The translations under genes were made by a program, and so were the position numbers. Below the pieces are notes generated by a model that worked only from the letters and a program-made list of their open reading frames with translations, was not told where the DNA came from and searched no databases. A stretch of DNA of 64,000 bases from a virus. Taxonomy: Duplodnaviria; Caudoviricetes. The stretch is from the IMG/VR virus record IMGVR_UViG_3300049794_000047. One strand, written 5' to 3'. How positions within the stretch are numbered: the first letter of the stretch is position 1; every line of letters starts with the position of its first letter. Shown piece by piece: positions 4,299-64,000 of the stretch.

Positions 4299-4613
4299 TA
4301 ACTTGGTCATTTTGAAGAGGCGAGTGATCATGAATGACAAAGAATCCCTCCCGATCGATCGCCCCGCGAAGGAACGAACGGGCACCAGACCACGGTCGTT
4401 CTCCACAACCACGTCCACTGTCACACCGCGCGTCAGGCAGAGGGCGGCGACTGCGGCACGCGCTTCGAGGCCCGCTGCTCGTGCGGCTGGGAGTAGGGAG
4501 CCAGCAGCCGCGCCGCGGCCGACGCGATCGCTGTCGGACACCGCGGCTACTCGCCGGATGCCGCGGTCATCGTCACTTCGGACATCCCCCAGCCTCGGAA
4601 ATCAGTGGAAGCC

Positions 4614-5198
4614 ATGATCGGCGACCCGAACCATTTGGCCTTTGAAATCACGTGGCCCGCCCAAGAGCCCGTAGCCGTGCAGGGTCTCGGCTGGGGGGAC
4701 CTCGTCGTGTGGTTCTCGGGGTGCGCCCTATGGGCAGCAGGTACACAAGCCCAGCCGGTAGCGTGGACCTGGATCGATCTCGTCGAGCACTTGGCACGCG
4801 CCTGGGGCCCTTTACTGTACGAAGAGCTCTACCCGTATGGGCTCGTCGCGATCGGCCCCGAAGCGTTACGAACGCGTACCCTGCTCACAAGCGTGACCGG
4901 AAAGACCGCGAACGAGGTTGAGGACGCCGTGCATGCGTTCCAGCAACGCCACGACCTCGCTGCCGGGCTTAAGGGTCTCGCGCTTCCGCCGATCTGGCTC
5001 GTGCGCGAGGGGGCGCTGATGCGGATACGCGCAGAGGGGCAGGACCTGTGGCGGCCCTGTAACGAGGTACTGACAACACTCACCCGCTTCGTTGAGGAAG
5101 TCCGCACACGGACTGGCACACAGGGGGCGCGTGCCAAGAACGCCTTCGAGCGGTGGGACGCGCGGATGTCGCACGGAGAACTGTGGTCTCCCAGGTAA
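4614..5198 (+). CDS. hypothetical protein, possibly C-terminally truncated
   Basis: Protein-like 194-aa ORF; its stop lies within the first bases of the repeated leader at 5191. Confidence 0.6.
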   Translation: MIGDPNHLAFEITWPAQEPVAVQGLGWGDLVVWFSGCALWAAGTQAQPVAWTWIDLVEHLARAWGPLLYEELYPYGLVAIGPEALRTRTLLTSVTGKTANEVEDAVHAFQQRHDLAAGLKGLALPPIWLVREGALMRIRAEGQDLWRPCNEVLTTLTRFVEEVRTRTGTQGARAKNAFERWDARMSHGELWSPR

Positions 5199-5331
5199 CT
5201 GGCTACCCAGTATCTCGAAGACACCACCCTCGTGTACTGCCAGACACCGGGTGATCCACCACCCAAGGGGACCTGACAAAGACTTGCGCCTGCCTTCGTT
5301 CGGCATATCCCATGCACTAACGGAGAACATG
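5191..5331 (+). repeat. repeated ~140-bp promoter/leader module, copy 1 (diverged)
   Basis: Aligns with 6580 and 8554 (CTGGCTACCCAGTATC...GTGTAC...GACCTGAC...ACTTGC...GGCA). Confidence 0.75.
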
Positions 5332-5550
5332 ATGACATCCACGATCAAGGAGATCCCCGCGAGCGCCGACACGCCCGCCGATCAACCCTGCAAGACCTGG
5401 CACGTGTCCTACAGGCTGACCTCAAAGTCCCCGGTCCTGCCGATCAGTGACACGTCTTGCTCGCTGGATGAGGCCGTCCTGGAGTTCCAGGCCTGGCGGT
5501 CAGCGAACGGCATCGGGGACTATTACTCGGTCACCTTCGAGGAGGTCTAA
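5329..5550 (+). CDS. hypothetical protein
   Basis: ATG 13 nt after sigma54-like motif CGGCAT-N5-ATGCA (5301-5316). Confidence 0.55.
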   Translation: MMTSTIKEIPASADTPADQPCKTWHVSYRLTSKSPVLPISDTSCSLDEAVLEFQAWRSANGIGDYYSVTFEEV

Positions 5551-5552
5551 GG

Positions 5553-5849
5553 GTGGTGGTCGTCACTCCGCTCCACGCGCACTACTCGCCAGCCCACCTG
5601 GATTACGTGATTGAGCAGATGCGACGGCTTGGACCTCCCAAGATCCGCGCTTACTTCGACGCGGTATCAGGGGCCTGGATGGCTCGGGAAGGTACACCCC
5701 GTCTACGCGCCGCGAAGCTGCTCGACCTTCCGCCGGTCATGGTCCCGGTGCGCTGGCCGCACTCACACAAGGCCCTAGATCGCGCTAGATTCGCAGCGCT
5801 CCTGAGGGGCCACGCCTTTGAGAGGGTCGACGTGACCAATCCAGTATAG
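5553..5849 (+). CDS. small ParB/Srx N-terminal-like domain protein
   Basis: PPKIRAY...AREGTPRLRAAKLL resembles the ParB G.HRL.A motif. Confidence 0.55.
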   Translation: MVVVTPLHAHYSPAHLDYVIEQMRRLGPPKIRAYFDAVSGAWMAREGTPRLRAAKLLDLPPVMVPVRWPHSHKALDRARFAALLRGHAFERVDVTNPV

Positions 5850-8049: not shown

Positions 8050-8526
8050 ATGACCCACGTCGAAGCCGATAACTTGATCGCGACACTCCCCAAACCGGGG
8101 GGGCTGCGACTCTTCCGTGAGGACGATCGAATCGTGATGGACGGTGGCAAGTTTGGCCCGCACACGCTCAGCGCCAAGGTCTCAAGCGCCGAGCGCCTGC
8201 TCGTGCACTGGAAAGGCTACGTCGAGAACCAGGGGCTTACCCTCGGTCCTGGTTACACGGCCGAGCGCCCAGCACCTGCGCTCATCCCACACCTCAAGAG
8301 CTCAGAGCGCGACTACGAGCCCGGTGACAAGATCGCGTTCAGCTCACCAAGCTACTCAGGAAAAGGCGATCACGGTTGGCGGCCGGGCGTCGTTGTGCGC
8401 GCGACGCCCAAGCGCGTGCTTGTCGAGTACTCGTTCAAGTACGACCTCGAGCAAGCCAAGAAGACCGGCAAAGAGCCGCGCCGTCACGAGATTTGGAAGA
8501 AACGCACCGAGGTACAAAAGCGCTGA
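8050..8526 (+). CDS. hypothetical protein
   Basis: 158-aa ORF; C-terminal SH3-like PGDKI...W.PGVVV pattern. Confidence 0.55.
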   Translation: MTHVEADNLIATLPKPGGLRLFREDDRIVMDGGKFGPHTLSAKVSSAERLLVHWKGYVENQGLTLGPGYTAERPAPALIPHLKSSERDYEPGDKIAFSSPSYSGKGDHGWRPGVVVRATPKRVLVEYSFKYDLEQAKKTGKEPRRHEIWKKRTEVQKR

Positions 8527-8553
8527 TCAACACATCCTTCGCTCGTGTCGAGG

Positions 8554-8771
8554 CTGCCAGGGGGCTGGTTACCCAGTATCCCGAAGACGCCACCGCCGTG
8601 TACCCCCAGTCCCTGGGCAGCTAGTTACCCGGTAGACTTGACGAGAACTTGCACGCGCATTCACTTGGCACGCCTCATGTATAAGGTGACTGTTATGGCC
8701 AAGTACTCACACGAAGAATGCCTCGCACTTGCACGCTTGGTACTGACCGACTGCAATAACGCCATCGGTCC
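8554..8771 (+). repeat. repeated leader plus MAKYSHEEC N-terminus, copy 3
   Basis: Near-identical to 6580-6797. Confidence 0.9.
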
Positions 8772-8863
8772 AGCGTTCAGCCAGTTGCGCGCTCTATTCC
8801 CAATTCTCACGTTGCGCGAGGCGATCGCATTGATCGAGAAAGCACGGTTCGACCTCGCCCTTA
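8695..8863 (+). pseudogene. small ORF interrupted by MITE copy 2
   Basis: The reading frame runs into the MITE at TTA 8861-8863. Confidence 0.5.
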
Positions 8864-8949
8864 GGAGCTGGACTTTATTAACTTGGTCATTTGAACGATT
8901 CCCCGACGAAGATCCACCAGAAATGACCAGGTTATTTCGTTCCAGCCCC
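8864..8949 (-). mobile_element. 86-bp hairpin MITE, copy 2
   Basis: Reverse orientation, TTA on both sides. Confidence 0.85.
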
Positions 8950-9014
8950 TTACAAAGATCTTCCAAGCCTCATAACCAGCCCGCCCCTTGCCAGGGCGCG
9001 GCAGTAGGATCATC

Positions 9015-9129
9015 CATGCTTATCCGGATAGCACCCAGAGCAAGAGTCGGTCCTCTGGTGAACCATTTGGAATTCCTCGGGATCGACGATCGGCAAAGTC
9101 CGCACAGGGGCAACAACCGGATAAGCATG
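9015..9129. mobile_element. 115-bp non-autonomous IS1595-family MITE
   Basis: Ends CATGCTTATCCGG / CCGGATAAGCATG match the TIR family of the adjacent IS; flanks are not duplicated. Confidence 0.7.
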
Positions 9130-9153
9130 GTTTGATCCATGCCTGTCCGGTTG

Positions 9154-10188
9154 TCACCCAACGCTCCCACTGGTAGTGCTCGGATGAATCCAATCTCCAT
9201 CGTACAACTCGTCATATGTGGGAGCCTCCTTCGTGACACTCAGGCCGAGCAACGAGCGGAAGCTGTTGAACGGGTAGAAGCGCCGGTTGAAGCGGAACAC
9301 GAACTCGTTCAGGTACGCCTGGAGGTGATCGGGCGACACGCCGTGATGCGTGCCGTTGATCCACGTTTTCAGGTTCGAGAACACGAGGTGGATCACGGGC
9401 AGGTAGTCCTCGGTGACTCCCGGCTCGCCGCGCTCGGGACACGCGAGGTGCTGGTAGCCGTGCCGAGCGAGGCCCGCGTAGCTCTGCGAGCCGTCGGTGA
9501 CGACCATCTCCGTGAGGGTGTCGACGTTCGCGGCGATGAAGCTGCCGCACGTCTTCGCGGTCTTGTCGGGGATGACCGCGAGGCGCAACCGCCCCGCATA
9601 GCGACCGCCGCGCCGGGGCTTCGCCTTGGTGTGCCGGTAGTCGTCCTCGCTCTCGATCTTCTCGACCTTGCGCTGCTTTACCTCGACCGCGCCGATCACG
9701 CGGATCTGATCGGTGACGCCTCGTCCCTTGCCGCGCGTGCGCCCGCCGACGTAGGTCTCGTCGACCTCGACGTGTGCGCGGGCGCCGATCGGCCCGCTCG
9801 TGGTCGCCATGCCGGCGCGGAGCTTGTGGAGGATCTGAAAGGCCGTCTCGTAGCGGGTGAGTCCGAGCTGGCGCTGCAACTGCACGGCGGACATGCCGGG
9901 CGTTTGGCTGGAGATCAGGAAGGCCGCCCAGAACCAGGTGCTCAGCGGCGTGTGGGTCCGCTCCATGATCGTGCCGGCAGTGAGTGCCGCATCCTTCTTG
10001 CAGCCCTTGCAGCGCAGCACGCCGGGGCGCGCGGCGAACCGGAACGGCTCCGCGGTGACGTTGCACCTCGGGCACTGGAAGCCGTCGCGCCAGCGGATCG
10101 CTTCGAGGTACTTCGCGCACGCGGCGTCGTCCGGGAACATCTTCATAAAGCCGGGGAGCGACTCGGGAAACTTGTCGGCCATGCACAT
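9154..10188 (-). CDS. IS1595-family (ISXO2-like) DDE transposase
   Basis: Zn ribbon CPRC..CKGC, HTH, VEVDETY, VVTDG, HHGVS..HLQAYLNEFVFRFNRR. Confidence 0.95.
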   Translation of the reverse strand: MCMADKFPESLPGFMKMFPDDAACAKYLEAIRWRDGFQCPRCNVTAEPFRFAARPGVLRCKGCKKDAALTAGTIMERTHTPLSTWFWAAFLISSQTPGMSAVQLQRQLGLTRYETAFQILHKLRAGMATTSGPIGARAHVEVDETYVGGRTRGKGRGVTDQIRVIGAVEVKQRKVEKIESEDDYRHTKAKPRRGGRYAGRLRLAVIPDKTAKTCGSFIAANVDTLTEMVVTDGSQSYAGLARHGYQHLACPERGEPGVTEDYLPVIHLVFSNLKTWINGTHHGVSPDHLQAYLNEFVFRFNRRFYPFNSFRSLLGLSVTKEAPTYDELYDGDWIHPSTTSGSVG

Positions 10189-10191
10189 AAC

Positions 10192-11019
10192 TTAGACCGC
10201 CTCGTCTTCGAGGTGGCGGGAGAGCGTCTCTGGCATTTCACACAGACCTCCGCACTGGACTGGCGGCTCGTTGTTGATGTGCCACTTGGGCTCGTCGATC
10301 AGGCGCAACATGCGCAGCGAAATCCGCACGCGCTTGCCGCCTCGGCGGTCGCTGAGAAACCAGGAGCCAGAGCCGAGGAGATCCTGAAGCTTGGCGACGT
10401 TCTCGTAGTTCTCTGGGTAGTGGAGATCGATGTGCTTCCAGTAGCCGAGGCCGCCCTTCGGGCATTTGAGACAGTTGCTGTTGTCGAATCCCTGGAGGTA
10501 CGGAACCGGAAGGACGAGGCCAGCGTCCGCAACGATCTGGAAGCAATCCTGTTTCGTGAGTCCCTCCTCGATCAGCGGCGCGATCACGTCACGGCCTGCG
10601 TTCGCGTCGACGAAGCTATCCAGGCGGTGCGCCTCGTCGGCCGTGTAGCCAAGCACCATCGTAGCTTCCGGGTGATATGCGTCGAGAATCTTGCCTTTGA
10701 GCAACTTGGAGCACGGCGCACCGTCGCGTCCGGCGATGAATCGCTTCGCAAACCAGACCTTGAGCGGGTCTGCATCGAACTTCGTATCGCGCAAGACCGT
10801 GATCGAACGAGCGAAGTAGCGTTCCGCGTCCGCGAGGAAGCGCCGGTTATCGGGGTGCTCTGCGGCAAGGAAGGCGTTGATCACCTCGACACGACTGCCG
10901 TAGCGGGCGAGCGCGATCTTGGTGGCGACGAACGACGCAGCGCCGCACGAGAATCGCGCGACAACTCGACCCTCTGGCACGGCGATTGCCGTTGTTTCGG
11001 AAAGGATTGCGGCGACCAT
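10192..11019 (-). CDS. PAPS-reductase-like / PP-loop (adenine nucleotide alpha hydrolase) protein, phage type
   Basis: RFSCGAAS PP-loop variant, EHPDN.RF, GAPCS..LK, GYTADE, NC..C.KGG.GYW. Confidence 0.75.
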   Translation of the reverse strand: MVAAILSETTAIAVPEGRVVARFSCGAASFVATKIALARYGSRVEVINAFLAAEHPDNRRFLADAERYFARSITVLRDTKFDADPLKVWFAKRFIAGRDGAPCSKLLKGKILDAYHPEATMVLGYTADEAHRLDSFVDANAGRDVIAPLIEEGLTKQDCFQIVADAGLVLPVPYLQGFDNSNCLKCPKGGLGYWKHIDLHYPENYENVAKLQDLLGSGSWFLSDRRGGKRVRISLRMLRLIDEPKWHINNEPPVQCGGLCEMPETLSRHLEDEAV

Positions 11020-11138
11020 GCTCTACACACTAGCCATGGATACGTTGGGTGCCAACCGGATAGGCATGGTTTGATCCCCATCGCCCGGGGCTTACCCTTG
11101 CCAAGCTTGACGCGGGGCGTACGTCATCGGGCATCTAA

Positions 11139-19076: not shown

Positions 19077-19406
19077 CTACTTGACGACGCGGAGCACCGT
19101 CTCGCGTGGCCTATCCTCGACGACGGTCTCCTCGTCGGCAAAGTCGTCCGGCGGTCTCCCACAGTGTGGGCACGTCCGTGGCGAGAGCAGCGCGCCCGCG
19201 AGCAGGTCGTCGATCGACACGTCGGTCAACCGCGCGACGCCGTAGGCGAGCCTGGCCGTGACGTCTCGCCCGCCGCGGAGCACCTTGCCGATGGTGTCGG
19301 CCTTGACCCCAAGCGCGTCGGCGAGGGGCTGCCAGCCTCCGACACGGTACCGCAGGAAGCGGATCGCGATGCGCACGTGCCGCTGCTCTTTGTCGGTGAG
19401 CCTCAC
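19077..19406 (-). CDS. XRE-like HTH protein with CPHC motif
   Basis: LADALGVKADTIGKVLRG HTH; GTGA-coupled to the transposase. Confidence 0.75.
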   Translation of the reverse strand: MRLTDKEQRHVRIAIRFLRYRVGGWQPLADALGVKADTIGKVLRGGRDVTARLAYGVARLTDVSIDDLLAGALLSPRTCPHCGRPPDDFADEETVVEDRPRETVLRVVK

Positions 19407-20722
19407 GGCATCACCAGCTGCGAGAACTCGGCCTCGACCCCGAACTCCTCGATCGCATGCACGATGCAGCTCAGGTTCCACAGCAGCACCTTGGCGAGCA
19501 CCTCGTTAACCTGCGCCGCGAACAGCTTGGATCGCACGCTGCCGCCGAACTTCGCCTTCATCGCACCGAACGTCGACTCGACGTTGCTGCGCCGGTGGTA
19601 GTGCCTGAGGAACTCCTCGGCCTTGAGGTCGAAGTAGGCCCACATCTTCCGCCAGTGCTCGTTCGGATGGTCCATCTCGCGGCTGTTGCTCTTGAACGGC
19701 ACGAAGGGCAGCGCGCCGACCGCGGCGATCGCATCGAGATTGGGCGCTGCCAGGTACGCCTTGTCGGCGCTGACCTCCCGCATCTGGAAACGCTGGGCCG
19801 TCGCGTTGACGAGATCCTTGAACTGGAGCGAGTCGCCAGATCCGGTGCCCGTGCCGATCGTGACGCGCGCGGCGGTCACGACGTTCGTGAGCGTCCCGGT
19901 CGCGGCGTGCAGCTTCACCCAGTCGTGGATGAATCGCTGCTCCTTGTGCTTCTGATCGTGCCAGCGCTCGACGACGACCTCCCCCTCGTCCCTCAGGCGC
20001 CGCACGGTCGTCTTGAACCCGGTCGCGTCCACGGCGAACTGGCCCGCCCTGTTCTCGACCTGCGCCTGCGGGCCCGCCGCCTCCTCGATCATCCACGTCA
20101 GGATCGGCGTCATCGCCGGGCTCTCCATCGCGCGGAACAGCGTGTTCGCGTCCCACGCCCGCGAGAGGTACCCCCGCTCGACGCACGCAGCGATATCCGA
20201 CTCGGCGCGGCGGCCGGAGCAGCCCGAGTACACCTTCATCACGAGGCCGAAGATCGCCTCACGGTCAGGGATCGGCCTGCGCCCCGGCGCGCAGGGGTCG
20301 CGTTCTGCGTCGGGGACGGCGAGGCACAGTGAGTGGAGGAACTGTGGGACGCGCCTGCGCTCGGTGGTCTGCGCCCGGTTGTACGCGGGCCAGTTCTGTT
20401 TCGACTGCTGCTTCTTCTTGGGGAGCGTGATCTCGCCCGTCTCGACGTTCATGGCGCCCTCCCACGAGAGCCAGAACAGGCACGCCTCGTAGTGCTTGCA
20501 GGGTCTGCGGCGCAGCTCGTAATCCGGGCACGTGCAGGTCTGCTCGACGAGATCGACGAGGTACGTCGGGACGTTGGAGTTAGCCGACTGCGCTGGCACG
20601 ACGTAGCGTCCGCCGAGCGGGCGGATACCGCCGCGCTGGGCGATCTGTCGGCCGCGCTCCTCGCGCGTGGTGGGGAGGGGCTTGAACTCGGTCGGGGCTG
20701 CGGGGGTCTCGGCGGTTGCCAT
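19403..20722 (-). CDS. DDE transposase (IS5/IS903-like) with N-terminal SWIM zinc finger
   Basis: CTCPD...CKH SWIM; NWPAYN; AVDATGF, VKLH, ADKAY, YHRRSNVESTF. Confidence 0.92.
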   Translation of the reverse strand: MATAETPAAPTEFKPLPTTREERGRQIAQRGGIRPLGGRYVVPAQSANSNVPTYLVDLVEQTCTCPDYELRRRPCKHYEACLFWLSWEGAMNVETGEITLPKKKQQSKQNWPAYNRAQTTERRRVPQFLHSLCLAVPDAERDPCAPGRRPIPDREAIFGLVMKVYSGCSGRRAESDIAACVERGYLSRAWDANTLFRAMESPAMTPILTWMIEEAAGPQAQVENRAGQFAVDATGFKTTVRRLRDEGEVVVERWHDQKHKEQRFIHDWVKLHAATGTLTNVVTAARVTIGTGTGSGDSLQFKDLVNATAQRFQMREVSADKAYLAAPNLDAIAAVGALPFVPFKSNSREMDHPNEHWRKMWAYFDLKAEEFLRHYHRRSNVESTFGAMKAKFGGSVRSKLFAAQVNEVLAKVLLWNLSCIVHAIEEFGVEAEFSQLVMP

Positions 20723-59798: not shown

Positions 59799-60137
59799 GT
59801 GCTGACCAAAACACACACCGCCAGTCTCAACGTCAACTTGGAGTTCGCAGGCTTCTTCGAGAGGCTCGGCTACAGCGTGACGTACGAAGGTCGGCGAGAA
59901 ACGGGCGAGCGTTGGTACGAGATTTATGACGACGCGGGCATCATCTTCCAGGTCCCCTGGGGGACACCGCTCCCAGAATTTCTCGCCGACTTGCCGTACC
60001 TCGCCGAGGGCAAGCCCGGCATCGGGCCGACCAACTACTGGTGTGCCTGTGATGATGACAAGAAACTACACGCGTTGCTCGCGCGTGTTCGATCAGCGCA
60101 GGCCAACGAAGGTGCTTCTCCGGTAGAAGGTTCATGA
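59799..60137 (+). CDS. hypothetical protein
   Basis: AAGGA RBS, ATGA-coupled. Confidence 0.6.
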   Translation: MLTKTHTASLNVNLEFAGFFERLGYSVTYEGRRETGERWYEIYDDAGIIFQVPWGTPLPEFLADLPYLAEGKPGIGPTNYWCACDDDKKLHALLARVRSAQANEGASPVEGS

Positions 60138-60409
60138 ACGAAACCAGATCTGCCTCGATGCGGTGGTCGTATTACTACGCCTGCCGATACCTCGCTGTAA
60201 ACGGCCCGGCGACGGCCGACATGGTGGGTGCAGTTGTGTGGAAGGACAAGAAGCGCGGAAAAACGACGTCGAGCGGCGGAGGCGGCGACTACGCGGCCCA
60301 GATGTTACTCGGCCGCATGAAGAGGGCCGGGCTGGTACGCCATGCGCCGAGCGAGGGCTCAACACGTTGGGAAGTCACGCCCCTCGGACGCACGAAGGCG
60401 GCCAGATGA
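60134..60409 (+). CDS. winged-helix-like protein
   Basis: GPATA..VG...LGRM.RAGLV......WEVTPLG. Confidence 0.6.
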   Translation: MNETRSASMRWSYYYACRYLAVNGPATADMVGAVVWKDKKRGKTTSSGGGGDYAAQMLLGRMKRAGLVRHAPSEGSTRWEVTPLGRTKAAR

Positions 60410-60717
60410 GGCGCGAGGTGTTCATGTTCCGGGATCCAGCCGCTGCTCGAACAGCCGCCGTGGACTCACCAAGCGTTCCGGGCAAACACCGCCGGAGGGG
60501 AAACGAGGACTGGCGCGTCGAGCCGTGCCAATGCTGCAAGTCGCTCGCGATGCTGTGGTGGCGGTTCTGCCCGTTCTGCGGTACGGTACTGCCAACGGCA
60601 CTCGACGGGAAAGTCGTGAAACAGACGTCGAAGCCTCCTCGCTCCGTCAAGCCGCCCCGCACCGTCAAACGTCCTGTCTGCGCAACGCCAGGGGCTCGAA
60701 AAGTTAAACTCCCATGA
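60406..60717 (+). CDS. zinc-ribbon protein
   Basis: CQCC.......RFCPFCG. Confidence 0.55.
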   Translation: MRREVFMFRDPAAARTAAVDSPSVPGKHRRRGNEDWRVEPCQCCKSLAMLWWRFCPFCGTVLPTALDGKVVKQTSKPPRSVKPPRTVKRPVCATPGARKVKLP

Positions 60718-61241
60718 AAAGAGCACGCTTCTTGTCGAAGAACCCCTCGAAGGCCAAGCACGTCGGTCAACCACTCACGGCACGCGAGAACGAGGTCCTC
60801 TGGCTCATCACGGAAGGCTTGTCCAACAAAGTGATCGCCGATCGGCTGGATATCAGCACGCACACCGTCAAGTTTCACCTTATGAACGCCGGAAAGAAAA
60901 TCGGATCGACCTCACGCACGAAAGCTGCCGTCGACTTCATCCGGTACCAGGGAAACTCCGCGCAGGGCCGAGGCGACCCCACGTCAGCTAGCTCAGAGTT
61001 CACGGAGCGCCGAAACAAACGGCTCGAGGCCACCAACCGGAAAGACGGCGAAAGCACCGCTGCAAAGGACAACTGGATCAGCGGCTTCGCCGTAGCCCTC
61101 GCCCAGGTCCACCGCCACAGCGGAGGAAGTACCGTCGTCTGTGAGACTGCGCGCCACGCCGGGCTGACGCTCGCAGTTGCGTGCAGGGCCGGGGTATCCT
61201 CATTCGACCTTGAAGAGCTCGAGAGGGCGAAGGTCCCGTGA
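60714..61241 (+). CDS. LuxR-type HTH regulator
   Basis: LTARENEVL.LI.EGLSNK.IA.RL.IS.HTVKFHL.N...K.G..SRT.A. Confidence 0.9.
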   Translation: MKRARFLSKNPSKAKHVGQPLTARENEVLWLITEGLSNKVIADRLDISTHTVKFHLMNAGKKIGSTSRTKAAVDFIRYQGNSAQGRGDPTSASSEFTERRNKRLEATNRKDGESTAAKDNWISGFAVALAQVHRHSGGSTVVCETARHAGLTLAVACRAGVSSFDLEELERAKVP

Positions 61242-61288
61242 CGCACACCGGACCCGCTGACGCGGCGCCGCGATTCCGTACAATGAAG

Positions 61289-62429
61289 CATGCTTATCCG
61301 GTTAGCTCCCAATAACCCGTGATTCTCTCATTCAAATATCGCCTGAAGGGCCAGCGCTGCATCCGTCAACTTCGACGGGGCGCCTGTATGGTGAACCGCG
61401 TCTGGAACTACAGCGTGCAGACGCAGCATTCGGTTCAGCGGACCTGCCGGGATGGACTTTCCCCTCGGTGGCCCTCCAAGTACGATCTTCAAAAACTCAC
61501 GGGTGGCACCTCCCAAGATCTAGGTCTTCATGCCCAAACGATCCAAGGGGTGTGCGAGCAGTTCACGAAGTCGCGCGACCTTCACAAAAAGTGCCCCCGT
61601 TTCCGTCGCTCTGGAGGGGCCAGGCGCTCCCTCGGTTGGATTCCATTTCAAAAGCAGTCTCGGCAGATCACCGCCAACTCGATCACCTACCTCGGCAACA
61701 CGTACCGCTTCTTCGGCTCGAAGAAGCGCCCCCTCCCTGAGACTGCGAAGGGCGGCTGTTTCGTTGAGGATGCACGCGGCCACTGGTGGGTCTGCTTCCA
61801 TGTCGAGGTGCCGGATGATCTGCCCAGGGCACCAGACACCGCGGTCGGGATCGATTTTGGTCTCACGACGTTGGCAACGCTTTCGACCGGCGAGAAGATC
61901 GAGGCCCCCCGGACGTACCGTCGCTACGAGGAGAAGTTGATCGTCGCGCAGCGCGCGAATAACAGGTTCCGTGTTCGGGCACTGCACGTCAAGATCGCAA
62001 ACATCCGTCGGGACCACATGCACAAGTGGACGACGAAGGTGGCCCGATCCCATCGGACAATCTTCGTCGGTAACGTCTCAAGCTCTCAGCTCGCGAAGAC
62101 AAAGATGGCGAAGTCCGTCTACGACGCGGGCTGGTCGACTTCTCGAAACGCCCTCCGCTACAAAGCCAGCAGGCACGGGGGAACGTTCCGAGAGGTGGAT
62201 GAAGTTTCGACATTCACGACCCAAACCTGCTCGACGACGGGGATTCTCCCGCCGGAGAGGCCGAGAGGTATCGCAGGCCTTGGAATAAGAGAGTGGGGGT
62301 GTTCTGCCTGTGGAGAAATCCACGACCGCGACGTGAATGCGGCCCGGAACATCCTTAAACTCGGGCTGAGTGCTCAGCCTCTTGTGGAAGAAAGCCGGGT
62401 TGCCCATGGGCGTTAACCGGATAAGCACG
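61289..62429 (+). mobile_element. non-autonomous IS1595-type TIR element carrying only tnpB
   Basis: TIRs CATGCTTATCCGGTTAGCTCCCA and (rc) CGTGCTTATCCGGTTAACGCCCA; 8-bp TSD CAATGAAG at 61281-61288 and 62430-62437. Confidence 0.9.
61319..62416 (+). CDS. tnpB: RNA-guided endonuclease TnpB with rearranged RuvC-II
   Basis: FKYRL, VWN, RuvC-I GIDFG, VGNV in place of VEDL, alternative Glu in VDE..FTTQTC, RuvC-III DRDVNAARNI. Confidence 0.92.
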   Translation: MILSFKYRLKGQRCIRQLRRGACMVNRVWNYSVQTQHSVQRTCRDGLSPRWPSKYDLQKLTGGTSQDLGLHAQTIQGVCEQFTKSRDLHKKCPRFRRSGGARRSLGWIPFQKQSRQITANSITYLGNTYRFFGSKKRPLPETAKGGCFVEDARGHWWVCFHVEVPDDLPRAPDTAVGIDFGLTTLATLSTGEKIEAPRTYRRYEEKLIVAQRANNRFRVRALHVKIANIRRDHMHKWTTKVARSHRTIFVGNVSSSQLAKTKMAKSVYDAGWSTSRNALRYKASRHGGTFREVDEVSTFTTQTCSTTGILPPERPRGIAGLGIREWGCSACGEIHDRDVNAARNILKLGLSAQPLVEESRVAHGR

Positions 62430-62431
62430 CA

Positions 62432-62707
62432 ATGAAGATCAGACGCAAGACCGGCCCTTCACAACTGTCCCGCCAGGCCCGGGCGATACTGTCACGCACG
62501 GCCATCGCCCAGGGAGCAATCGACGCCGCCGTCACAGACGTCGTGGTCGAGGGCGGCCCGCCTGAGCTCGGCCCCAAACGGAAGACCGCGCAGCGCGCCT
62601 GGCTCGACCGGGACATTACGAAGCGTGTCCGCAACGGTGGTGTTTCAGCACCGAACCCGAAGGGCCCTATGAAAGGCCTCGTCCCTGCTCCTCGGCTCCC
62701 CACCTGA
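62432..62707 (+). CDS. basic hypothetical protein
   Basis: Its ATG lies in the duplicated target CAATGAAG. Confidence 0.5.
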   Translation: MKIRRKTGPSQLSRQARAILSRTAIAQGAIDAAVTDVVVEGGPPELGPKRKTAQRAWLDRDITKRVRNGGVSAPNPKGPMKGLVPAPRLPT

Positions 62708-62719
62708 AAGGCACCGCCT

Positions 62720-64000
62720 GTGACTGACATCAGCCCCCGAACCGACCTATCGGTCACGTGCGCTCGACTCGGAGATCGGGAACGTGACGCGCTCCTCGCA
62801 ATCAGCGAATGGTGCTGGCGCCGGTTCAAGTTGACCCGGCCCTGCCTCGCCGCGCCTGACGGGCCGAGCCTTAGCATCGCGATCTCGAGCGCGCTCTTCG
62901 CGATGGACGGCTCCGCACCGGCCACCTATCCCGGCGAGTCGCGGGACGGCTTGCTGAGCCTCCTCTCCGAAGATCTGCCCCTCGTGTCGACCGAGCGGGA
63001 CGCCATCCGTGCCCTGATCACGGCAGCCGACACGGCGACTCACGCTCTCCCCGTGGAGCATCGACGGGAATTGTTCTTGCTGGCGCGAACCTCCCGCGAA
63101 GAGGGAACGGGACGTCTCGCTCGCGACATCCGCAACGCGCTAGCGTTCGTCGATGGCGCCTTCCTGGGCACAGTCAGCGAGATCGAGGAGATTTGCGACG
63201 CGCTCGCCCGGCGATCCGCGAGTTCCCTCTCGATCGAGGCGCTGATCACGGCGGTCGATGCTTCCCTGGTCAAACAAACGGCCGCAGCGCCGATCCCCCT
63301 GAAGGTTCCTGATAGCGGACATCCGCGCCCCGCACCCCGTCGAGCCCTACGACTCGCGCTTACACTCGCCCGGGACGCCCTGACCTCGGCAAGTGAGGAG
63401 TTCCGCAGCGCTGTGCAGAGCGCTGTTGCGAATCTGCTCGACGAGCCGGTGGATGCCGACGAGATCGAGGACAAGCCCGGACTTGCCAGGCTCGCCGAGG
63501 TTCGTCAGATCACCCTTGCCCTCGCGGCGCCGAACACGCTGCGGTGCGTCCTCTGTGAGGAAGCTCTATCTCCCGGGGAGTCTATTGACGGCGCATGTCA
63601 CGACGACCTCGCGCACTGCGTGCTCCTCGACCTGTCTCGGCAACTCCAACGCTGGGCAGGGGCCCACCCATTCGACGACGATCAAGATCCGGCGCGGGAC
63701 ACAACCGAGCAACGACTGGTGCGCTCCTACCACAGGTTCGCCGCACTCATCGGTGACGCCGCCGATGCCTGCTTCATGAAGGTATCCTGCGACGTCTGTG
63801 ACACCGTTGGCTACGGCAACGCGCGTTGTTGGTCGTGCGTCGCCCACTGGCGGTGGATGGCACCGGGGCTCCGGCGCAAGAGGACCTCCGAGTTAGTCGC
63901 GCGGACGGCGGGTCGGGCGCTTGGTCCCGAGGACGTTCGGTCCTCCACTGACCGCACGGGGCCAAGGACGCCGGATCGGTCGCTCGGTCCCGAGGACGTT
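62720..64000 (+). CDS. hypothetical protein, runs off the window end
   Basis: AAAGG RBS then GTG; frame read as open to 64000 by manual translation (absent from the track because it has no stop). Confidence 0.6.
   Translation, partial: MTDISPRTDLSVTCARLGDRERDALLAISEWCWRRFKLTRPCLAAPDGPSLSIAISSALFAMDGSAPATYPGESRDGLLSLLSEDLPLVSTERDAIRALITAADTATHALPVEHRRELFLLARTSREEGTGRLARDIRNALAFVDGAFLGTVSEIEEICDALARRSASSLSIEALITAVDASLVKQTAAAPIPLKVPDSGHPRPAPRRALRLALTLARDALTSASEEFRSAVQSAVANLLDEPVDADEIEDKPGLARLAEVRQITLALAAPNTLRCVLCEEALSPGESIDGACHDDLAHCVLLDLSRQLQRWAGAHPFDDDQDPARDTTEQRLVRSYHRFAALIGDAADACFMKVSCDVCDTVGYGNARCWSCVAHWRWMAPGLRRKRTSELVARTAGRALGPEDVRSSTDRTGPRTPDRSLGPEDV

Follow-up and report, generated by a model that had tools for sequence, protein, structure and literature searches.

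A tnpB gene carried alone between IS1595-type inverted repeats in a Caudoviricetes genome

The window analyzed here is the whole stretch of 64,000 nucleotides from IMG/VR record IMGVR_UViG_3300049794_000047, a virus of the class Caudoviricetes (Duplodnaviria). Close to its 3' end lies an element whose sole gene, tnpB, is enclosed by terminal inverted repeats (TIRs) of the type found in the insertion sequence family IS1595 and flanked by an 8-bp target-site duplication (TSD) (Table 1). The GTG start of tnpB is 7 nt past the left TIR, and its TAA stop (62414-62416) lies within the right TIR. The inverted repeat reported by the repeat finder is 24 nt long with 88% complementarity. The two copies of the TSD match at 8/8 positions, and the chance of such a match is 1.5e-5 for one fixed pair. 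A 15-nt end motif is present in six copies in the window, compared with an expectation of 0.77, and none of 100 shuffled sequences reached six. The six matches correspond to three properly oriented pairs, which delimit the tnpB element, an autonomous IS1595-family element, and a miniature element. In the tnpB element, tnpB is the only open reading frame (ORF) with family support. There is no IS1595 transposase gene in it, and therefore the element is considered to be non-autonomous. The initial annotation had described a lone tnpB packaged in this way between TIRs and an 8-bp TSD, and all of these details are found in the sequence.

Table 1. Positions of the tnpB element, its parts, and the other elements with IS1595-type ends in the window.
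Feature	Position	Strand	Description
tnpB element, whole	61289-62429		1141 bp; 23-bp inverted ends; tnpB is the sole gene
Left TSD copy	61281-61288	.	CAATGAAG; read directly
Left TIR, IS1595 type	61289-61311	+	Inverted-repeat finder and enriched motif
tnpB	61319-62416	+	365 aa, GTG start; OrfB_IS605 (PF01385), E 7e-13; Cas12f1-like TNB (PF07282), E 2e-17
Candidate guide-RNA (omegaRNA) scaffold	62156-62429	+	Overlaps the 3' end of tnpB and enters the right end; sequence conservation
Covarying hairpin GGCTGAG/CTCAGCC	62363-62380	+	7 pairs, 4-nt loop, inside the scaffold region; arms 62364-62379
Right TIR	62407-62429	-	Includes the final three tnpB codons and the TAA stop
Right TSD copy	62430-62437	.	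Contains the ATG of a 91-aa ORF downstream (62432-62707)
Miniature element	9015-9129	.	115 bp; ends near-identical to those of the tnpB element, whose 15-nt left-end motif they match with 0 and 1 mismatch
Autonomous IS1595-family element	9138-11068	-	TSD GTTTGATC, 8/8, at 9130-9137 and 11069-11076
IS1595 transposase	9154-10188	-	DDE_Tnp_IS1595 (PF12762) and Zn_ribbon_IS1595 (PF12760)
Passenger ORF of the autonomous element	10192-11019	-	275 aa; phrog_424, phosphoadenosine phosphosulfate (PAPS) reductase-like; no Pfam family

Both Pfam matches of TnpB are above the curated cut-offs, and the protein matches the structures of ISDra2 TnpB (8exa and 8h1j) with an E-value of 6e-23. By alignment to these structures, D179 and D338 are the canonical RuvC aspartates, and the position of the RuvC-II glutamate is occupied by G251. 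An alternative glutamate, E295, is present 44 residues past G251. All four residues (D179, G251, E295, and D338) are invariant among 34 homologs. Classical IS605 relatives have the same glutamate-to-glycine substitution. Thus, the rearrangement is not special to the copies with IS1595-type ends. In the main text of Altae-Tran et al. (2023, PMC10691335), TnpBs in which the RuvC-II glutamate is replaced by glycine constitute RIIr-5, the largest rearranged clade, which is judged likely to be active. D179, E295, and D338 constitute the Asp-Glu-Asp triad in the RIIr-5 rearranged form. Judging from these residues, this TnpB most likely acts as an RNA-guided nuclease whose RuvC site is rearranged. 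In the subclade to which the window copy belongs, the first zinc-finger pair has lost one cysteine (CSTTG).

The autonomous IS1595-family element is located ~52 kb from the tnpB element in the same window. Its TIRs were considered close variants of those of the tnpB element from the start, and indeed 13 of the 16 outer nucleotides are identical between them; its own TSD is also present as described. In 16 viral contigs, the same end motif flanks the transposase genes of relatives that are 56-97% identical to the IS1595 transposase of the window. Together with the window copy, 17 autonomous copies are available, and 14 of them have an exact 8-bp TSD. The homologous elements in viral contigs span 1.5-2.6 kb. 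This variation in length indicates that passengers, like the PAPS-reductase-like ORF in the window copy, appear common.

The tnpB element is found at other sites. The DNA around TnpB relatives was fetched from metagenome and viral contigs, and ten independent tnpB elements with both ends, including the one in the window, were recovered. Four of the ten have a TSD, and all four TSDs are different: CAATGAAG in the window, GGAAGATC in L081 (8/8), GAACAGAC in L098 (8/8), and AATCGTC, of 7 bp, in L104. L094 represents the L098 site, with a match of 7/8. The insertions with different TSDs that the initial annotation had proposed to look for are thus present at three further sites, two with exact 8-bp duplications and one with a 7-bp duplication. 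More than 100 cluster representatives show 63-85% identity to the window TnpB. All of them are full-length ORFs of ~365 aa, and the C-terminal tail ...ESRVAHGR is common to nearly all. In four soil metagenomes, at least six unrelated flanks were observed directly past the right end of the tnpB element (62429-62437). In one soil metagenome, the summed contig depth at 62286-62430 was ~7x the depth of the flanks, probably because the last ~150 nt are more than 90% conserved family-wide, so that contigs of other members map only there.

An empty allele had also been expected by the initial annotation, and it was not found. Among contigs of the four soil metagenome runs across 60000-63800, none skips 61289-62437. 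The sole contig joint, from 61313 to 62407 (side 23), connects end to end and does not have enough length for interpretation. Homologs of the downstream 91-aa protein revealed only the same occupied locus in other samples (L167 and L168) and one 58% relative on a 2-kb contig. The scan of viral contigs gave no match to the window-type right end. L167 extends past the window and contains a second tnpB element of the same genome at 4545-5731 (~66810-67996 in window numbering), encoding a 375-aa TnpB. As read here, the flanks of this second element, CATTCACC and GGATGATC, show no duplication, and its right end is 2 nt ahead of the ATG of the next gene.

The ATG in the left TSD copy of the window element opens a 10-codon frame across the repeat (MKHAYPVSSQ, then a stop; 61283-61321). 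This frame stops one codon ahead of the tnpB start. L081 and L103 show the same spacing of stop, one codon, and start; in L104, the frame through the left repeat continues into tnpB. The translation of tnpB may be coupled to whatever host frame the element lands in.

In the maximum-likelihood tree, 12 TnpBs from elements bounded by IS1595-type ends formed one clade with a support of 100/99. This clade is nested within classical elements, and its sister group is the TnpBs from the classical IS605-type elements L001 and L002. The arrangement with IS1595-type ends is observed clade-wide, among homologs 54-85% identical. Such clustering points to one capture event. Relatives at 42-50% identity, from Acinetobacter, Thiothrix, Alphaproteobacteria, and others, are ordinary IS605 elements. 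In the scan of GTDB genomes, classical relatives at 50% identity or less were the only ones among the matches listed, and they served as the outgroup. Copies in one Acinetobacter genome have a common right end, ...GGAGAGGATGTCAA, followed by unrelated flanks, and their left boundary comes after TTTAT. There is no IS1595 end motif in the classical relatives examined (42-50% identity). The claim that TnpB was captured by a family of transposons with DDE transposases is supported by the IS1595-type ends throughout the clade, the TSDs, the absence of IS605 ends, and the matching transposase in the same genome.

Two subclades of TnpB are distinguished by the inner end motif, the CCCAA type and the ACACAnACAG type (repeats of 30-35 bp). 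The inner ends of each subclade resemble those of a different autonomous IS1595 group. This is the pattern predicted by dependence on cognate transposases. At 1860-1895 of L001, the right end ...GACGTTAA is followed by CCGGGCAG, and a 10-nt match, CGTTAACCGG, to the scaffold-repeat junction of the IS1595-borne clade is present there. This match may be due to chance or may be a trace of the capture route.

The 3' end of tnpB overlaps a conserved RNA element. Among 10 full-length homologs, the frequency of the top third base at invariant four-fold codons is ~0.5 over the first 260 codons and ~0.9 over the last ~85 codons. The rise extends from codon ~280 to the end, and the nucleotide alignment is nearly invariant over this part. 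Such frozen synonymous sites are a signature of an overlapping nucleic-acid element ~250 nt long. The hairpin in this region, which the initial annotation had reported correctly, covaries across relatives. In 15 sequences, representing both subclades and the classical sisters, 98% of cells are paired and compensatory changes are seen in 5 of the 7 pairs. The covariation score is 0.487 against 0.161 in shuffled alignments, and 0 of 500 shuffles reached it. G-U pairs are frequent, a feature more expected of RNA than of DNA. In L083, 36 nt are inserted exactly within the hairpin loop. The hairpin is common to the IS605 sisters L001 and L002. In the classical elements, it is followed by a linker, then by another hairpin (TCCCCGNCC TTTA GGNCGGGGA), and last by a tail that ends in GATGTCAA. 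The IS1595-borne clade retains the linker (GGAAGAAAGCCGGGT) and then enters the inverted repeat; this clade lacks both the right-end hairpin of its ancestors and the tail ...GGATGTCAA. The frozen synonymous sites and the covarying hairpin thus indicate that the guide-RNA scaffold was probably kept, and that the IS1595 end probably took the place of its terminal hairpin. Pairing is conceivable between a CCGG of the linker and the CCGG of the repeat. Rfam gave no relevant match at E-values up to 10. The fold of the whole 62250-62450 region has a z-score of -1.3, which is not informative.

The same ends are found around other cargoes. L093 contains, at 8137-9226, an element with the same inverted ends and an exact 8-bp TSD (GTCTGTTC), and its lone gene is a different one, encoding a 347-aa protein with no Pfam match. 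This cargo ORF likewise ends ...GHGR within the repeat. Derivatives in L087 and L088 retain only the right 100-170 nt of the tnpB element, and L100 contains a further miniature element with these ends. The presence of a different cargo in L093 indicates that the inverted ends are a mobile chassis and that tnpB is one of several cargoes. The flanks of the miniature element in the window agree at only 5/8 positions, and the autonomous IS1595 is inserted 8 bp past its end. On one contig from one metagenome run, another family end adjoins position 61281. Family members with IS1595-type ends seem to land beside existing ends. The window also encodes another type of transposase, an ORF of 439 aa that contains a SWIM zinc finger and a DDE_Tnp_1 domain (19403-20722, minus strand), and a gene with both of these domains is also present near the tnpB element in L081.

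Sequences around the insertion sites were compared for 19 right flanks of tnpB elements and 73 other family ends. Eighteen duplicated sites were also compared, and both flanks were trustworthy at only four tnpB sites. The 18 duplicated sites show a weak preference for T two bases upstream and for a purine followed by T at positions 1-2 of the duplication. This preference is common to the autonomous elements and the tnpB elements, and therefore it reflects the transposase, not TnpB. If the guide is derived from the flank, the target is the empty site, and a recognition motif is expected upstream of the duplication.

Taken together, we consider it quite likely that the tnpB element is a non-autonomous IS1595-type unit, mobilized in trans, whose TnpB is most likely active with a kept scaffold. 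In the proposed scenario, tnpB and most of its scaffold took the place of the transposase gene in the same orientation, which would explain why the ORF ends within the transposase-proximal inverted repeat. The internal hairpin of the IS605 ancestors would have been retained in the scaffold, and the ancestral terminal hairpin and tail would have been swapped for the IS1595 end. The element would insert by the IS1595 mechanism, with an 8-bp staggered cut of the target. The transposase is probably an IS1595 transposase supplied in trans by an autonomous relative such as that at 9138-11068, as suggested by comparison of the ends. The transcript probably reads through the end of the element. By analogy with Fanzors bounded by inverted repeats, the guide would then be taken from the flank, that is, the duplication and downstream DNA. 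We infer that TnpB may cut empty alleles in phage-like genomes, and such cutting could benefit the element by acting as homing into co-infecting genomes.

Several observations weigh against parts of this scenario. The ends of the autonomous element and those of the tnpB element differ at 3 of the 16 outer nucleotides; they are variants, not copies. No sampled element contains tnpB and an IS1595 transposase together, and so the partnership between the two is indicated by the shared ends only. Six of the ten tnpB elements keep their ends without a duplication (L083, L102, L103, L106, L108, and the second element in L167), whereas only 2-3 of the 17 autonomous copies lack one (Fisher p 0.01-0.02, nominal). 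This deficit may be due to greater age, to copies having recombined in phage genomes, or to insertions adjacent to each other. Perhaps part of the spread of the tnpB element was not simple transposition, or else many copies are old or recombined. No target-adjacent motif specific to the flanks of tnpB elements was found in the 19 right flanks and 18 duplicated sites. A nuclease guided by the flank would thus lack a reliable recognition motif at most sites. Finally, RNAalifold on close copies gave no covariation for the pairing between the scaffold and the end, because the bases of both are invariant there.

The structure of the element could also be explained by a nested insertion, in which a tnpB-only IS605-type element of the IS1341 group landed in an IS1595 miniature element, and the repeats and the duplication belong to the latter. 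Miniature elements with these ends exist (9015-9129 and L100), and family members do insert beside or into each other, as shown by the IS1595 next to the miniature element and the end abutting 61281. However, neither the 7 nt from the left repeat to the start of tnpB nor a stop codon inside the right repeat leaves space for IS605 ends, and the ancestral right-end structures are missing. The tight arrangement is shared by the whole clade at different sites. These observations largely refute the nested insertion, and we regard it as highly improbable. It is only a little less improbable that the tnpB elements are dead relics, decaying and immobile, whose shared ends record one ancient capture only. 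The copies without duplications, the degenerate left ends in several of them (L102, L107, and L094), and the failure to find an empty allele or a polymorphic insertion in the four metagenomes fit such decay. On the other hand, the ORF of the window copy is intact, its ends are near-perfect, and its duplication is exact. Duplications of 7-8 bp are seen at three other sites. The more than 100 protein clusters with full-length ORFs and a conserved C-terminal tail, and the many distinct flanks within single soil metagenomes, also argue against immobile copies.

The function of TnpB leaves more room for alternatives. TnpB could be a passenger without nuclease homing, serving RNA-guided DNA binding, regulation, or conflict between phages in which the guide is fixed or comes from elsewhere than the flank; that function, or transposase binding, would be served by the conserved 3' region. 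The lack of a recognizable target-adjacent motif at the insertion sites, the loss of the ancestral terminal scaffold hairpin, and the loss of one zinc-finger cysteine in the subclade of the window are compatible with it. DDE excision already leaves a break, and homing has been argued to add little (PMC13565253). Repurposed TnpBs are described as common in the main text of Altae-Tran et al. (PMC10691335). We nevertheless consider it unlikely, since D179, E295, and D338 are invariant, and the same rearrangement is treated there as catalytically active. Frozen synonymous sites over ~250 nt far exceed the need for transposase binding, and the hairpin is homologous to that of classical elements. 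A different source of the guide is also conceivable. The right end of the classical sister stops at ...CGTTAA, and in the window element ...CGTTAA is continued by the final 13 nt of the IS1595 end. If the scaffold ends at ...CGTTAA, these 13 terminal nt of the repeat, together with a few bases of the flank, would act as the guide. There is little chance that this is the case, about as little as for dead relics. If it is, TnpB would be aimed at the ends of the IS1595 family and would cut at about the junction of the end and the flank. It would then help to excise or liberate the element, or attack rival copies, as an RNA-guided nuclease acting within a DDE transposition pathway.

The preferred explanation, a trans-mobilized IS1595-type unit with a TnpB that most likely remains active, has consequences for both the transposon and the nuclease. 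IS1595, the prokaryotic relative of the eukaryotic Merlin transposons, would join the DDE transposon families known to carry TnpB. The clade represents a clean and datable carrier switch: one capture, the terminal hairpin of the scaffold swapped for an inverted repeat, and a gene that ends inside the repeat. It is the same solution as that reported for Fanzors in eukaryotes, and therefore the clade is a tractable model in bacteria or phages. Questions for such a model are how a scaffold becomes adjusted to the end of another transposon, and which benefit a guided nuclease brings to a cut-and-paste element without a fixed target motif. The family is compact (~365 aa) and abundant in soil phage-like genomes, and it may be of interest in mining for small editors.

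The association of TnpB with DDE transposons itself is not new. The initial annotation started from the premise that prokaryotic TnpBs travel only with IS200/IS605 or IS607, which was overstated. The main text of Altae-Tran et al. (2023, PNAS, PMC10691335) describes six TnpB branches with inverted terminal repeats, DDE-1 to DDE-6. In that text, no more than 250 bp separate the 3' end of TnpB from the transposon end, movement in trans is inferred for solo TnpBs, whose ends are those of elements with a transposase, and IS630 is the carrier named. According to a 2026 review, ISL2, IS630, and IS1031 carry TnpB (PMC13565253). The main text of PMC10691335 does not name IS1595, and a literature search pairing TnpB with IS1595 or ISXO2 returned nothing relevant. 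Carriage by IS1595 is thus the part added here. The window element resembles DDE-1 to DDE-6, as far as the main text defines them, in the TIRs around TnpB, in the distance of its 3' end from the transposon end (250 bp or less), and in being a solo copy with shared ends. It differs from them in that no sampled IS1595-ended element holds both genes and in that the tnpB stop is inside the repeat.

In IS200/IS605 elements, in particular the IS1341 group, a lone tnpB likewise goes with a scaffold overlapping its 3' end, as is probable for the window element, and the nearest relatives (L001, L002, and the Acinetobacter elements) belong there. IS605 elements have no inverted repeats or duplications; their ends are hairpins, and they are inserted behind a short motif that is fixed (PMC13565253). 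The window element, in contrast, has 23-bp inverted repeats and a variable 8-bp duplication, whereas its Acinetobacter relative inserts after TTTAT. The IS1595 family is characterized by 8-bp duplications, an N-terminal zinc finger, together with a DDE_Tnp_IS1595 domain (Siguier, Gagnevin and Chandler 2009, as cited in PMC8101967). The tnpB elements share with it the 8-bp duplication (8/8 in the window, L081, and L098, and absent from six of the ten copies), TIRs, and ends found also on elements with Zn-ribbon and DDE_Tnp_IS1595 domains. Passengers are carried by members of the family as well, such as the PAPS-reductase-like one in the autonomous copy of the window. The tnpB element is distinct in having no transposase, and a TnpB passenger is not described for the family in the literature examined.

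The parallel with Fanzors drawn in the initial annotation is apt, but prokaryotic carriage of TnpB by DDE elements was already described in the 2023 study (main text of PMC10691335). In the Fanzor1 and Fanzor2* elements of eukaryotes and their viruses, a TnpB-type nuclease is likewise the only gene, and the non-autonomous DNA transposon around it has inverted repeats and duplications (Bao and Jurka 2013, PMC3627910; PMC10711439). The RuvC glutamate is relocated in both Fanzors and the window TnpB. The scaffold of Fanzor RNAs takes in the inverted repeat together with the duplication and reaches on into the flanking DNA (Yoon et al. 2023, PMC10711439). The window TnpB differs from Fanzors in being prokaryotic or phage-borne, in its carrier family, and in its descent from the IS605 clade, as Fanzors are traced to the IS607 clade. 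With its 365 aa, which is TnpB size and not the enlarged size of a Fanzor, its position nested in bacterial IS605 TnpBs, and a genome like that of prokaryotic viruses, it is a functional analog of Fanzors, not a member of them.

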